DNA of 64,000 bases from a virus (lineage: Duplodnaviria > Heunggongvirae > Uroviricota > Caudoviricetes). The notes under the pieces were generated by a model. It did no database searches. It worked only from the letters and a program-made list of their open reading frames with translations, and was not told the origin of the DNA. The DNA lies in the IMG/VR virus record IMGVR_UViG_2718218139_000001. The stretch is one strand, 5' to 3'. This document shows, piece by piece, positions 17,780 through 52,674 of this stretch (its first letter is position 1; every line of letters starts with the position of its first letter). A program made the translations under genes and the position numbers.

Positions 17780-17796
17780 AATGCTCTAATAAATTT
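17780..17796 (+). promoter_or_regulatory. C1 repressor operator (16/17 match to ATTGCTCTAATAAATTT)
   Basis: AATGCTCTAATAAATTT upstream of icd-ant region. Confidence 0.6.
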
Positions 17797-46849: not shown

Positions 46850-46871
46850 ATTCTACCGCTAGTCATTTGTT
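46850..46871 (-). promoter_or_regulatory. late-promoter-like motif (AACAAATGACT-N5-TAGAAT)
   Basis: motif copy about 30 nt upstream of ATG at 46820. Confidence 0.4.
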
Positions 46872-46892
46872 GATTATTTAACTCAATAAAAG

Positions 46893-46909
46893 AAAATTAT
46901 TAGTGCAAT
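46893..46909 (-). promoter_or_regulatory. C1 repressor operator (15/17, inverted)
   Basis: AAAATTATTAGTGCAAT upstream of early operon starting 46967. Confidence 0.5.
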
Positions 46910-46966: not shown

Positions 46967-47212
46967 TTGGCAGAACGTGTTGATGATGCAGAGCTGAGCA
47001 TGAATCAGTTAGAAGCTCTCAAAGACATGGCCATCGATAACATCAGAAAGCAGGCACAGGTCGTGAGCCAGGTATTTACAGGGAAGTGTCGTTACTGCAA
47101 TGAATCGATTGAATCAGGCATTTATTGTGACGCTGAATGTGCGCAATGGCACAGGGAAGAGCAGGCTGCAAAACAGCGTAAATATGGCATGCGACCGGCA
47201 GGATTTGACTGA
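46967..47212 (+). CDS. small C4 zinc-finger protein (TraR/DksA-like)
   Basis: ORF track 81 aa; CRYCNE..YCDAEC. Confidence 0.5.
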   Translation: MAERVDDAELSMNQLEALKDMAIDNIRKQAQVVSQVFTGKCRYCNESIESGIYCDAECAQWHREEQAAKQRKYGMRPAGFD

Positions 47213-47214
47213 TT

Positions 47215-47793
47215 ATGTTGCGCTTTACTGAGGAAGAGTTTCAGGCTTTTAGTGAGCGTCGAAATAAGGGGCGGTCCAGGCCAAAAACCAAAAAGGATCC
47301 ATTCTTATCGCTTGCGCCGGTAAAAGAAGTTTCTCCACATGCGAAGGCACTTGCAGCACTGGCAAAGAACCCCGACCTGCGCGACGGAAATTGCGAGCAC
47401 TTCGAGCAGGTTTTCATTTTTGATTACTTCGAACGCAAGCACCCTGACATCTATGAGCTGTTGCATGCAACGCCTAACGGAGGGAAACGTTCAAAAGCAA
47501 CCGCCGGGAAAATGAAGGCTGAAGGGCAGAAAAAAGGTTATCCGGACATGAGTCTCGATAAAGCATGCGGTATTTATCACGGCATGCGAATTGAGCTTAA
47601 AGAACCAAATGGTAAAGCCCCGACGAAAGAGCAGATCGCCTGGATGCGCAGGCTTAGAGAGGAAGGTTACTACGTCGTTCTTGCGTATGGTGCAGAACAA
47701 GCGATAACCGCCATCCTGGAATACATGAGCCTTAAAAAGGGTGAGGCTATTGAGCATGTATTGAACGGTGACAAGTGGTTGTTCGCTACGTGA
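47215..47793 (+). CDS. VRR-NUC domain nuclease
   Basis: ORF track 192 aa; ..GYPDMSL..GMRIELK..AWMRRL..GYYVVLAYG. Confidence 0.55.
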   Translation: MLRFTEEEFQAFSERRNKGRSRPKTKKDPFLSLAPVKEVSPHAKALAALAKNPDLRDGNCEHFEQVFIFDYFERKHPDIYELLHATPNGGKRSKATAGKMKAEGQKKGYPDMSLDKACGIYHGMRIELKEPNGKAPTKEQIAWMRRLREEGYYVVLAYGAEQAITAILEYMSLKKGEAIEHVLNGDKWLFAT

Positions 47794-47859
47794 AATAATA
47801 AATTAATTAGTGCATATGTGTTCTTTGATACAGCGCACATTAACATCGGGAGAATAATC

Positions 47860-48015
47860 GTGTCATCCAAGGCTAATTATGAATCGCTGGCATCGATCAT
47901 GCCGCGTAATGAACAGGAAGCAGATGCTGTAGTGGACCCGGTAATCGCTGAAATGAATGCTCGCCTGGAGGCTGAATTTGCAGCTGAGAATGAACATACC
48001 ACCCAGGGCGACTAG
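47860..48015 (+). CDS. small hypothetical protein
   Basis: ORF track 47818-48015; alternative GTG 47860 after GGGAGA. Confidence 0.3.
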   Translation: MSSKANYESLASIMPRNEQEADAVVDPVIAEMNARLEAEFAAENEHTTQGD

Positions 48016-48619
48016 GACTGTTTTTTGTGTCGGTAGCGGTCCGTCACTCACTCGTGAGGACTGTGCTGCTATAGAAAAAACTGGCTGTTCAATCATCGCG
48101 GTTAACAATTCCTGGCAGATGTTCGATGACATTTATGCCTTATACGCCGGTGATTTGTCATGGTGGAAGCAATACGGATCCACCATACCGGGAGGGAAAT
48201 TCCGCAAAGTGACAGCCAACCTGGCGGCGGCGAAATCATTTTCGTTGGAGTACAGGCGATATTGTGGACCGGCGGAAGGGGTAAATAGCGGCGCGCAGGC
48301 TATCAGTCTGGCTGCTGAATCAGGGGCTGAAGTAGTTGTATTAGTCGGCTATGACTGTTCTCTGCAAAACGGCCTTCATTGGCATGGCGCGCACCCTCAA
48401 GCCCTACGGAATCCAACGCAGGTGTCTATTTCAAAATGGCAACAGCAGTTCCTGGATACCCGCAAAAAACACGCAGATTTACATATTTTGAATGCAAGTA
48501 GGAGCAGTGCAATTCAATGTTTCCCAAGAATAAATTTAGAGGCAGTGATCGCGTTATTATCGTCGGCAGTGGCCCAAGCGCCGCAAACTTTGTTGCGCCG
48601 CGCGGAGTGCCGATTATAG
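47990..48619 (+). CDS. CstII/DUF115-like putative glycosyltransferase, paralogue A
   Basis: ORF track 47957-48619; motifs VGSGPSL, IIAVNN, NSGAQAISLA..VVLVGYDCS. Confidence 0.5.
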   Translation: MNIPPRATRTVFCVGSGPSLTREDCAAIEKTGCSIIAVNNSWQMFDDIYALYAGDLSWWKQYGSTIPGGKFRKVTANLAAAKSFSLEYRRYCGPAEGVNSGAQAISLAAESGAEVVVLVGYDCSLQNGLHWHGAHPQALRNPTQVSISKWQQQFLDTRKKHADLHILNASRSSAIQCFPRINLEAVIALLSSAVAQAPQTLLRRAECRL

Positions 48620-49143
48620 CGGTCAATGGGGCCATCGACTGGCTGAACCGCGCTTCTTATTTTTTCACACTTGATCCATCGCCAGACAATATGCGGCGCG
48701 TTGGTCGTGGCCGCCGTCGCCGTGGTGTTTGTTATTGCATGGCACTACCCGATGTTAAAGAACGTGAAGTCAGAGACGGCGTTCTGTGCTTCCGTCGTGT
48801 GGCTGATCGTGGCATGGAGCCAAAAAATATGAATTCTCCCGAGTGGTGGGCGTGGCGCTGGTCCGCACATTTCGGACTTTGCGAAGATGAGAATGAAATT
48901 GCCAGCGGCAATAGTGCATATGGCGCTCTGAACCTGGCTTTCCATATCGGATTCAAACATGTCGCCCTGGTGGGCGTTGACGCTACACAAGAACCACGCG
49001 TTCACTCCGGCGGCACGCCAAAAAATCTAAGTCACCTGCCTTTGTTATTCCAGTCTGCGCGTGAACAGATTGACGTTGTTTCATGCGGGAAAATGGGAGG
49101 TATTCCGCAGATGACTCTTAAAGAATGGCTGAAGAATACATGA
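48517..49143 (+). CDS. CstII/DUF115-like putative glycosyltransferase, paralogue B
   Basis: ORF track 208 aa; motifs [33 protein letters not shown]. Confidence 0.5.
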
Positions 49144-49817
49144 TGGCACCCACAATTTATCACCGTATCGACGGTACCAAATACAGGAATGTCTGGGTTG
49201 TTGGTGATCTGCATGGTTGCTACACCAGACTGATGTCCGAACTCCATCGTGTGGATTTTGACCCGGCGCAGGATTTACTGATATCGGTCGGCGACCTTAT
49301 CGATCGCGGTACTGAAAATGTCGAATGTCTGGAACTATTGCAGATGCCCTGGTTCAGGGCAGTGATGGGGAACCATGAGCGGCTGATGATTGATGCGTTA
49401 AGTCCAGATGGCAACGTGAATAACTGGCTAATGAATGGCGGACAATGGTTCTTCATGCTGGACACTGATCAGGAAATATTAGCCTGGGCGCTGGTGGAGC
49501 TGGTAAAGCGTCTGCCCTATATCATTGAGTTGAACACCGGGCAAGAAACTATCGTTATAGCCCATGCCGACTATCCGGATAATGAATACCAATTCGGTAA
49601 GGAGGTGCCGCTTTTCAACGTTGTCTGGGCGCGCGAGCGTATCAGTGATTCGATGGATGATATTGGTGGCGAAATTTCGGGCGCAGATCGTTTTATCTTT
49701 GGTCACACTCCGGTGAAAAGCCCGAAGACATTCTGGAATCAGCAGTATATCGACACTGGTGCCGTATTTTGCGGAAACCTGACATTGATGAAAGTGAAAG
49801 GTGATGGTGCAGCATGA
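49125..49817 (+). CDS. ppp: Ser/Thr protein phosphatase (lambda-phosphatase family)
   Basis: ORF track 230 aa; GDLHG, GDLIDRG, GNHE motifs. Confidence 0.75.
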
Positions 49818-50515
49818 AGATTGCTTTAGTTTTTCGCTCTGGTGGTGACTATAACGCTTCCGATGTGCAGTGGCTGGTTAATCAACTGCCAAAAGGCTAT
49901 GAAATTATTTGCCTGACAGACCTGAAGCGTTTACATGTACCTGGCGTCAAAGTTGTCCCATTGATCAACCAGTGGCAAAAGTGCCGTGGCTGGTGGGCGA
50001 AAATCGAGTTGTTCCGACCGGATATAACAGATGATCTGTTCTATCTGGATTTGGACACAGTTATTGCCGGTGATATACGCCCAATCCTTGAGAATCCACC
50101 AACCAGCTTCACCATGCTTAGGGATTTTTACCATCCACAATATCGTGGTAGCGGTGCCCTGTGGATACCAAATAGTGTAAAAGCGCATATCTGGAGTTCA
50201 TTCTGGCAAGATCCGGAAGGTTGGATTTCTCGTTGTGTCACTACTGAGTGCTGGGGTGATCAGGGGTTCTTACGGAAGGTTATGGGCGATGATACACCAG
50301 CATTTCAGGATCTGTATCCAGGATGGTTTGTAAGTTACAAGGCCGATGTTGTGGAACCTGGTTCAAAATATGCGAGCGCGCGTTACTCCAGGGGGAATGG
50401 GGCATTACCAAAGGACTGCCGAATAATCTTTTTCCACGGCAAACCGCGACCTCGCGAAGTGTCAGAGGATTGGCTTCCCCTTATTAGCTCGTTTTTTGAG
50501 CGAGAATCAGAATAA
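49814..50515 (+). CDS. putative GT-A type glycosyltransferase (DxD motif)
   Basis: ORF track 233 aa; YLDLDTVI. Confidence 0.4.
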
Positions 50516-50516
50516 T

Positions 50517-50533
50517 ATTGCTCTAATAATTCC
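50517..50533 (+). promoter_or_regulatory. C1 operator (14/17), left arm of operator-terminator-operator unit
   Basis: ATTGCTCTAATAATTCC starting 2 bp after stop codon. Confidence 0.5.
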
Positions 50534-50541
50534 ATATTTTT

Positions 50542-50572
50542 AAAACGTGATGTACACTCATCACGTTTTTTA
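50542..50572. terminator. palindromic rho-independent terminator
   Basis: AACGTGATG-TACACT-CATCACGTT flanked by A-run and T-run. Confidence 0.65.
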
Positions 50573-50582
50573 TTAGAGCAAT
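50566..50582 (-). promoter_or_regulatory. C1 operator (14/17, inverted), right arm
   Basis: reverse complement ATTGCTCTAATAAAAAA. Confidence 0.45.
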
Positions 50583-52151: not shown

Positions 52152-52658
52152 TTGAGTATTTTCAATAAACACGCACACCAGGAACGTCCGTACATCGTCA
52201 TAGTAGATATTGATGGGACGATATCAGAGGCAACGGAAGACAGGCTGCATTTACTTCCACCACCTGGCAAAGGTGCATTAACAGAGCACTGGAACGAGTT
52301 TAACCTTGCCTGTGACACTGATGCTCCCATCACTTCAGTTATTGATATGGTGCGCCAGTTGTCCGGCATTTACACCCTCTGGTTTGTAACCGGGCGCTGT
52401 GAGATAGCCAGGGATAAAACACGAGCCTGGTTGCGTAAGCACGTAACAAATGGGACTGAGCCTTTGCTATCTATGCGTCCTGCCACCGATGACAGAAATG
52501 ACGGTCCAGCAAAGATTGATCTCCTGAAGAAAATTGGTCTAAGTAAAATTGCGTTCGCGCTGGAAGATAAGATTGACGTGGCGCGTGTTTTCAGGAGTCA
52601 CGGCGTACTTACGTTAATGGTCAGGGAGTATGAAAACGCGCTTCTCCATCAACAATAA
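52152..52658 (+). CDS. HAD-superfamily phosphatase
   Basis: ORF track 168 aa; motif I VIVDIDGTI, motif II WFVTGR. Confidence 0.55.
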   Translation: MSIFNKHAHQERPYIVIVDIDGTISEATEDRLHLLPPPGKGALTEHWNEFNLACDTDAPITSVIDMVRQLSGIYTLWFVTGRCEIARDKTRAWLRKHVTNGTEPLLSMRPATDDRNDGPAKIDLLKKIGLSKIAFALEDKIDVARVFRSHGVLTLMVREYENALLHQQ

Positions 52659-52674
52659 TTGCTCTAATAAATCT
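52658..52674 (+). promoter_or_regulatory. C1 operator (16/17) overlapping stop codon
   Basis: ATTGCTCTAATAAATCT. Confidence 0.55.

Follow-up and report, generated by a model that had tools for sequence, protein, structure and literature searches.

The pmgO, pmgP and pmgQ genes of P1-like phage-plasmids form a widespread cassette that may glycosylate virion proteins

Introduction

Phage-encoded transferases are known to glycosylate capsids in mycobacteriophages (Freeman 2023, cited through PMC11256854). In phages Che8 and Rita, transferases encoded by the phage, sometimes together with a methyltransferase, use host sugars to coat capsid proteins, and they are non-essential accessory functions. 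Here we describe a gene set that likewise combines transferases and, in some phages, methyltransferases, namely pmgO, pmgP and pmgQ, in a 64,000-nucleotide stretch of viral DNA (IMG/VR record IMGVR_UViG_2718218139_000001; this whole stretch is called the window below). The window corresponds at 100% identity to Escherichia phage RCS47, a P1-like phage-plasmid, and is 98.4% identical to P1. The mycobacteriophage genes occur in phages of Actinobacteria, near the right genome end and not beside the capsid gene, and glycosylation has been demonstrated there, whereas for the P1 cassette it is proposed. No Maf- or GT42-like member figures in the descriptions of the mycobacteriophage enzymes in the sources consulted.

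The enzymes that PmgO, PmgP and PmgQ most resemble come from other settings. The Maf flagellin nonulosonic-acid O-glycosyltransferases (PF01973; structure 5mu5) are about 600 amino acid residues (aa) long and carry flanking substrate-binding domains, whereas PmgO and PmgP are bare catalytic domains of 180-210 aa that resemble 5mu5 only marginally in sequence (E=0.52). CstII and CstI (CAZy family GT42), sialyltransferases of Campylobacter, are about 15% identical to PmgO and PmgP; CstII uses cytidine monophosphate (CMP)-activated N-acetylneuraminic acid (CMP-Neu5Ac), a donor that Escherichia coli K-12 does not have. WaaZ, the KdoIII transferase of the E. coli K-12 lipopolysaccharide (LPS) core, shows superfamily-level similarity in the C-terminal half, but it is chromosomal and acts on lipid A-core, whereas the P1 cassette is phage-borne. 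Finally, the PmgQ family shares a DxD, a GDQ and an H-G-x-P-(K/R)-P motif with the GT8 family (Skp1 alpha-galactosyltransferase 6mw5, the family-8 enzyme 5gvv, glycogenin, WaaJ/WaaO), but PmgQ has only about 230 aa and no match to Glyco_transf_8.

P1 is among the most-used phages in genetics, and its genes in this region have long been known and publicly annotated; pmgO, pmgP and pmgQ still carry the GenBank placeholder "putative morphogenetic function". The interval studied here (47215-50515) comprises the annotated P1 genes pmgM, pmgN, pmgO, pmgP, ppp and pmgQ, with pmgL just upstream, and the RCS47 proteins of the cassette region differ from their P1 counterparts by 0-4 residues each. RefSeq and PHROGs label PmgM as VRR-NUC, PmgO as "alpha-2,3-sialyltransferase" and PmgQ as "glycosyltransferase". 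Our search of the literature returned no paper that assigns a function to pmgO, pmgP or pmgQ. An earlier reading of the window from its letters alone, here called the original prediction, had described five consecutive genes acting in one modification pathway for a glycan, a protein or possibly DNA. All five were found at exactly the coordinates it gave; a sixth open reading frame between pmgM and pmgO, pmgN, had been overlooked.

Three of the genes travel together across unrelated phages

Relatives of PmgP were collected from genomes, viral contigs, individual assemblies and isolated phages (the viral-contig scan used an alignment headed by a distant family member), and the neighbours of pmgP in P1 were then scored for co-travel. 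An exhaustive profile search retrieved 560 of 1.84 billion cluster representatives. In essentially all non-P1-like loci with enough flanking sequence, PmgQ was encoded at most about 2.5 kb from PmgP, and PmgO was present in most non-P1-like PmgP loci. The trio was found in elements of Enterobacterales, Pseudomonas, Ochrobactrum, Brevundimonas, Zhongshania, Methylophilaceae, Alloalcanivorax and Sinomicrobium, and in the isolated phages phiNP, IME392 and XacN1; the phages EP_H11, CM1, RAS14 and Xoo-sp13, for which only PmgP was compared, encode a homologue of it, the last three being relatives of XacN1. These elements are mutually unrelated, ranging from a podovirus-like contig, lambdoid prophages and HK97-like siphoviruses to the 116-kb lytic phage IME392 and the jumbo phage XacN1. 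Their hosts are Gamma-, Beta- and Alphaproteobacteria and one Bacteroidota genome, and every identified host is Gram-negative.

The same proteins are joined in single polypeptides elsewhere. Among PmgP relatives we observed the fusions O+P, P+Q, Q+P, Q+P with an S-adenosylmethionine (SAM)-dependent methyltransferase, and Methyltransf_24+P, while in XacN1 a TylF-type sugar O-methyltransferase is fused to PmgQ. Other genes interleaved in the cassette encode SAM methyltransferases, a small GT-A enzyme that we call family X, and GT2-like and GT4-like transferases. By co-occurrence and fusions across unrelated phages, only pmgO, pmgP and pmgQ belong together, as one cassette. The idea of a coherent five-gene pathway was thus not borne out, ppp and pmgM being absent from all non-P1-like cassette loci, while its glycan-related character is well supported by the trio, the fusions and the sugar-modifying accessory genes.

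Within the cassette we found no sugar-activation gene and no flippase, and no membrane segment in PmgO, PmgP or PmgQ, which are soluble. The cassette would therefore work in the cytoplasm, and host nucleotide sugars would have to be drawn on because it brings no sugar-activation enzymes of its own. What appears to be new here is the picture at the level of the module: a compact cassette with fusions and accessory genes, spread widely and usually located among late or head genes.

PmgO and PmgP are distant paralogues with a Maf/CstII/MptE-like fold

The first two cassette enzymes are encoded by pmgO (47957..48619, plus strand; 220 aa) and pmgP (48517..49143, plus strand; 208 aa), the latter being the most conserved cassette member. 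Each protein consists of the catalytic domain only, and no flagellar genes lie nearby. By BLASTP the two are barely similar (E=0.003); their family profiles align over 161 columns (hhalign probability 98.1%, E=1e-13), in a comparison made without the O+P fusion protein P0051 in the PmgO alignment. Profiles of either family alone gave no significant match against PDB, while the joint PmgO+PmgP profile matched CstII sialyltransferases at E=1.3e-4, better than it matched Maf (E=0.52) or the MptE pyrophosphokinase HPPK (E=2). The motifs GxGPS, N, (N/T)SG and GxD, invariant or nearly so in the joint alignment, fall on GNGPSL, N31, TSG and GID of CstII, segments that we take to be CMP-binding. Both proteins show the Rossmann-like fold common to Maf, MptE and CstI/CstII. 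Two CstII/DUF115-like paralogues had been proposed from the letters alone, with profile searches of both as a check; these searches upheld the relation to the Maf/CstII/MptE-like fold, and the motifs that the joint profile aligns are precisely those quoted at that time.

The kinship has its limits. PmgO and PmgP belong to the MptE-like/Maf/GT42 superfamily by transitive homology only, since it is their homologues that pass the Pfam model PF01973 (P0260 at 44.1 bits; many others carry precomputed PF01973 marks). The alignment of the joint profile stops at CstII residue 179, before the catalytic His188, and the invariant His141 of PmgO aligns with CstII Tyr162. With an identity of about 15%, His188 outside the alignment and a K-12 host that has no CMP-Neu5Ac, the RefSeq/PHROG label "alpha-2,3-sialyltransferase" therefore overstates what can be said of PmgO. 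The invariant residues D66, S111 and D133 of PmgO and D53, S133 and D155 of PmgP occur in the same order and with matching Ser-to-Asp spacing; they were compared with the catalytic acids E324 and D415 and a conserved Ser of Maf 5mu5 by sequence order only, without superposition. A fold comparison against BFVD matched only uncharacterised viral MptE-like proteins. Judged from these motifs and profiles, PmgO and PmgP may well be glycosyltransferases.

The true start of pmgO is probably the ATG at 47990 (Met12), because homologues begin near residue 12-20 and because residues 1-13 are modelled with a predicted local distance difference test (pLDDT) score below 50. At the other end, the annotated overlap of pmgO with pmgP is 103 nt, and conservation of PmgO stops near residue 202, leaving a real overlap of about 46 nt.

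Two observations concern relatives of PmgP. P0336 and P0337 each combine a PmgP-like domain with a fused C-terminal domain bearing LGS..., NSGSSG and GxPxD motifs, which has the look of a third and more divergent kind of paralogue with the PmgP fold. In P0260 the PmgP-like domain is preceded by an N-terminal domain (residues 1-130) with a DGRRR motif resembling ParB/Srx-type nucleotide-binding domains and with no Pfam match.

PmgQ resembles GT8 glycosyltransferases

The third cassette enzyme is encoded by pmgQ (49814..50515, plus strand). Its family profile matched GT8 structures (6mw5 at E=1.8e-6, 5gvv at 3.4e-3 and glycogenin at 0.012), and the best of these PDB matches are protein-glycan GT8 enzymes. 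The motifs DLD (residues 79-81), GDQ (148-150) and HGKPRP (208-213) are all invariant in the family alignment, the last in the form HGxP(R/K)P. Of 27 family members, none matched Pfam Glyco_transf_8, and no Pfam model matched at E<=0.01. On this sequence evidence PmgQ is classed as a GT8-like DxD glycosyltransferase of the GT-A type, predicted to be retaining, consistent with the putative GT-A transferase recognised earlier from its DxD motif.

The position of the cassette points to the virion

Genomic position is the strongest clue to the site of action. In at least 11 loci, belonging to several capsid lineages, the cassette directly follows the major capsid gene (L095, L096, L107, L108/109, L115, L116, L119, L124, L127, L129 and L132). 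The order there is terminase, portal, protease, major capsid, [PmgO], PmgP, [methyltransferase or GT-A], PmgQ, head-tail connector and head-completion genes, brackets marking members that are not always present; the cassette precedes the connector genes or stands among them. In lambdoid prophages the cassette lies in the late operon, between the Q antiterminator or lysis genes and terminase, a position seen in L110, L112, L113, L118, L123 and L125. In XacN1 it stands at the head of a block of very large genes, the last of which is a tail-sheath completion gene, and in P1 it has a late promoter upstream and is divergent from the baseplate/tail operon. A Pseudomonas-type HK97-like lineage, in 43 of 80 contigs sampled, carries a lone PmgO-like gene, a gene for a 275-aa protein without Pfam match and a SAM methyltransferase gene among its structural genes (e.g. 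L240 5313-8201), interleaved with connector, head-completion, tail-completion, gp10-like and gp17-like genes; this set looks like a different glycosylation cassette built on the same fold.

The recurrence of the cassette in many unrelated phages, often next to the capsid gene, makes it probable that its enzymes coat virus particles with sugars. We propose, at a level of confidence that falls a little short of an even chance, that it glycosylates virion proteins with host nucleotide sugars, possibly CMP-activated 3-deoxy-D-manno-oct-2-ulosonic acid (CMP-Kdo). PmgO and PmgP, found elsewhere as one polypeptide and thus probably acting together, perhaps as a heterodimer, would be two diverged minimal enzymes of the Maf/CstII (GT42)/MptE-like type, and PmgQ would be a GT8-like, DxD-dependent retaining hexosyltransferase. 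To our knowledge, the sugar-transferring relatives of the PmgO/PmgP fold (GT29, GT42, Maf and WaaZ) all use CMP-activated ulosonic acids. Gram-negative bacteria make CMP-Kdo, which would be the sole CMP-ulosonic-acid donor common to all the Gram-negative hosts found. We infer CMP-Kdo as the donor for the PmgO/PmgP pair and a uridine diphosphate (UDP)-hexose for PmgQ. The product would be a short glycan, in some phages O-methylated or extended by the additional transferases, and the acceptor most likely one or more structural proteins of the capsid or the tail/connector, modified in the cytoplasm during particle assembly.

Several observations agree with this proposal. Maf, the closest structural relative, glycosylates a protein that self-assembles into a structure, and Maf enzymes are able to draw on the CMP-Kdo pool of E. 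coli and attach Kdo to Ser/Thr by O-glycosylation (bioRxiv 10.1101/2020.06.03.131540). The virion of XacN1 contains at least two Schiff-stained glycoproteins, which its authors credited to other transferases (PMC5852040).

Other observations weigh against it. PmgO and PmgP themselves score 23.6 and 21.2 bits with PF01973, below its cut-off of 34.6. P1 particles are not reported to carry a glycan; the cryo-electron microscopy (cryo-EM) paper on P1 (2026) never mentions glycans, and the paper on the P1 virion proteome makes no mention of glycosylation and did not find the cassette enzymes in particles. Single knockouts of pmg genes outside the five essential ones showed no plaque or antirestriction defect, and neither did CRISPR interference (CRISPRi) of pmgO, pmgP and pmgQ. 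The P1 cassette is also driven by C1-controlled sigma-70 promoters, giving early as well as late expression. In IME392 and L111 it lies near replication or nucleotide-metabolism genes, not structural genes, and in XacN1 its other flank is formed by ribonucleotide reductase genes. The place after the capsid gene could be merely a tolerated insertion site, and the capsid C-termini of cassette-bearing prophages, compared without a control set, all have short Gly/Ser-rich ends and gave no discriminating signal.

A bolder version of the proposal seems to us unlikely, though worth stating: that in P1 and several hundred related gene families of Gram-negative phages a minimal Maf/CstII-like pair and a GT8 enzyme siphon off CMP-Kdo from the LPS pathway of the host and use it to O-glycosylate capsid or tail proteins, giving a glycan that contains Kdo and is sometimes methylated, an unrecognised but widespread coat outside Actinobacteria that P1 would carry too. 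If the cassette does glycosylate particles, virion glycosylation would extend from mycobacteriophages to Gram-negative phages, among them P1-like phage-plasmids, which spread resistance genes. There would also be consequences for how antibodies recognise therapeutic phages and how these are cleared, for particle stability and for the interpretation of cryo-EM maps, and the cassette would provide a very small Maf-like protein glycosyltransferase, maybe useful for glyco-engineering in E. coli.

Alternative explanations

One set of alternatives, which we regard as improbable but not negligible, assigns the enzymes another activity or another target: PmgO and PmgP could be phosphotransferases like MptE or thiamine pyrophosphokinase, or the cassette could glycosylate a host protein or small molecule in takeover or anti-defence. 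The name of the Pfam family (MptE-like), the fold shared with pyrophosphokinases, the early expression in P1, the nearness to replication genes in some lytic phages and the lack of a known virion phenotype are all compatible with it. The sequence profiles, however, prefer CstII over MptE (E=1.3e-4 against 2), GT8, GT-A, GT2-like and GT4-like transferases as well as sugar O-methyltransferases occur as fusion partners of the enzymes or between their genes, and none of the seven proteins matched a PADLOC model.

Rather doubtful, too, is an action on the LPS core or another envelope glycan of the host during lytic growth, by which the receptor would be masked or truncated and progeny spared from adsorbing to debris, or superinfection blocked. 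P1 adsorbs to LPS core glucose, and the outer core is truncated when WaaZ is overexpressed. The hosts found are all Gram-negative, and for P1 such an action would make biological sense. The O+P fusion protein carries a precomputed, albeit faint, Pfam mark for WaaZ_KDO_III; the PmgP and PmgO profiles give weak alignments with the K-12 WaaZ (hhalign E=1e-4 and 3.5e-4), and a weak alignment of the PmgQ profile with WaaJ, a GT8 glucosyltransferase of the LPS core, spans the DxD and H..G..KPW region. Followed with the K-12 proteins, this lead remained weakly supported, at hhalign probabilities of only 37-56%. Moreover, the P1 genes are repressed by C1 in lysogens and those of other prophages lie in late operons, which argues against classical lysogenic conversion; conversion genes usually lie near att/int and have their own promoters. 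An LPS target also hardly accounts for the location within head-gene clusters, and new LPS would presumably replace little of the surface in one latent period.

That all five genes act in one modification pathway, as first proposed, we consider very improbable. In P1 and RCS47 the genes lie side by side in one direction, their junctions being short or overlapping, and they share C1 control. However, pmgL, pmgM, pmgN and ppp accompany pmgO, pmgP and pmgQ only in P1-like elements among the loci surveyed, pmgN only in close relatives of P1. The ppp gene is missing in five divergent P1-like phage-plasmids (L121, L128, L130, L131 and L139), where pmgP abuts pmgQ, and in phage D6 a ppp gene whose protein is 86% identical lies among unrelated small genes with no pmgO, pmgP or pmgQ nearby. 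Since the trio occurs elsewhere without them and ppp alone in D6, ppp has been inserted independently, in a slot of the cassette that is variable, and pmgM is a separate neighbour, set apart also by the operator Op83 and the promoter PpmgN described below. Together with pmgL and pmgN they are mosaic neighbours, not members of the pathway.

We know of no hypermodification of P1 DNA, and this counts against the least credible alternative, the glycosylation of phage DNA as a base hypermodification against restriction. Although phage glycosyltransferases can place diverse sugars, including Kdo, on 5-hydroxymethylcytosine DNA (bioRxiv 10.1101/2023.12.21.572611), and although the cassettes of L111 and XacN1 lie near ribonucleotide reductase genes (in L111 also near ThyX and DNMK-like genes), DNA as a substrate is to be regarded as highly unlikely: no hydroxymethylase, 5mYOX or C5-methyltransferase partner, and hence no hydroxymethyl-base pathway, lies beside the cassette in P1 or the HK97-like prophages, its usual positions are late or among head genes, the DNA glycosyltransferases described in the same source are JGT-like GT-A or T4 BGT-like GT-B enzymes rather than Maf/GT42-like or GT8-like ones, and antirestriction activity is unchanged in knockouts.

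Neighbouring genes

The gene in the variable slot between pmgP and pmgQ, ppp (49125..49817, plus strand), encodes a lambda-type Ser/Thr phosphatase, as had been proposed: the protein matches lambda phosphatase 1g5b at E=1.5e-94, contains the three motifs GDLHG, GDLIDRG and GNHE, and scores 59.3 bits with Pfam Metallophos (cut-off 21.5). It was also the only one with an NCBIfam match, PmgO, PmgP and PmgQ having none. Upstream, pmgM (47215..47793, plus strand) encodes a stand-alone VRR-NUC (PD-ExK) nuclease, again in agreement with the original prediction. It matches PDB 4qbl, a solved stand-alone VRR-NUC protein, at E=8e-17 and has a PD-(D/E)xK core (PD...ELK at residues 110-129); its score of 21.2 bits with Pfam VRR_NUC is slightly under the cut-off of 23.8.

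Between pmgM and pmgO, the overlooked pmgN (47860..48015, plus strand) encodes an acidic protein of 51 aa; its GTG start is preceded by the ribosome-binding site GGGAG, and the gene overlaps pmgO. When pmgN was knocked down by CRISPRi, P1 plating fell to 1.4e-2 and the gene was scored as essential, and in the same table pmgN is, like pmgO to pmgQ, non-essential by deletion (PMC10695390). The knock-down effect could be polar, off-target or a real dosage effect of the 51-aa protein. At the upstream edge, pmgL (46967..47212, plus strand) encodes a TraR/DksA-like zinc-finger protein (phrog_54, E=1.6e-12), on this match likely an RNA-polymerase secondary-channel factor rather than a morphogenetic protein.

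Transcriptional control of the region

Transcription of the region is controlled by the P1 repressor C1, with 17-bp asymmetric operators overlapping promoters; four of the sites are annotated in P1, and a consensus scan of the window gave 9 operator matches against 0.36 expected by chance. The operator at 46893..46909 (minus strand), from which the original prediction had derived its C1-controlled operon, is real and corresponds to Op82/O26 of P1, with 2 mismatches to the consensus ATTGCTCTAATAAATTT. It does not govern a single operon, since a second P1-annotated operator, Op83 (Oppp; 47800..47816, minus strand; 4 mismatches, one base different from P1), and the predicted promoter PpmgN just upstream of it, annotated in P1 between pmgM and pmgN, split pmgM from the rest. 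The description of the operon as early holds insofar as P1 has C1-controlled sigma-70 promoters here, but it overlooked the late promoter LPpmgL (46860..46878, plus strand; P1 annotation transferred by coordinates) upstream of pmgL. Its -10 hexamer carries one substitution relative to P1, AATATT to ATTATT (window position 46874).

At the 3' end, an operator-flanked terminator had been proposed, and folding supports it. A terminator-like hairpin (50542-50569; folding energy -13.4 kcal/mol, z = -5.65), with a U-run after it, lies between Op86a (50517-50533, plus strand) and Op86b (50566-50582, minus strand), each with 3 mismatches and annotated in P1; the consensus terminator scan did not pick this hairpin up. 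The P1 annotation also places the promoter PpmgR within 50517..50582. Elsewhere in the window, operator matches with 0-2 mismatches occur at 17780, 19451, 33652 and 36928/36939, the last forming an overlapping divergent pair (36928-36955), and one with 1 mismatch follows pap (52658-52674).

Downstream of pap, the P1 genes pmgT, pmgU and pmgV are replaced in RCS47 by a gene for a hypothetical protein and an ead/Ea22-like gene, and the mosaic breakpoint between RCS47 and P1 lies directly after operator Op88 (L002 10054-11666 in RCS47 against L001 10054-11482 in P1). The pap product itself (52152-52658) matches a PNKP-type HAD 3'-phosphatase domain (Pfam HAD_PNKP, 43 bits; PHROG polynucleotide kinase), which suggests a role in nucleic-acid end repair rather than as an "acid phosphatase".

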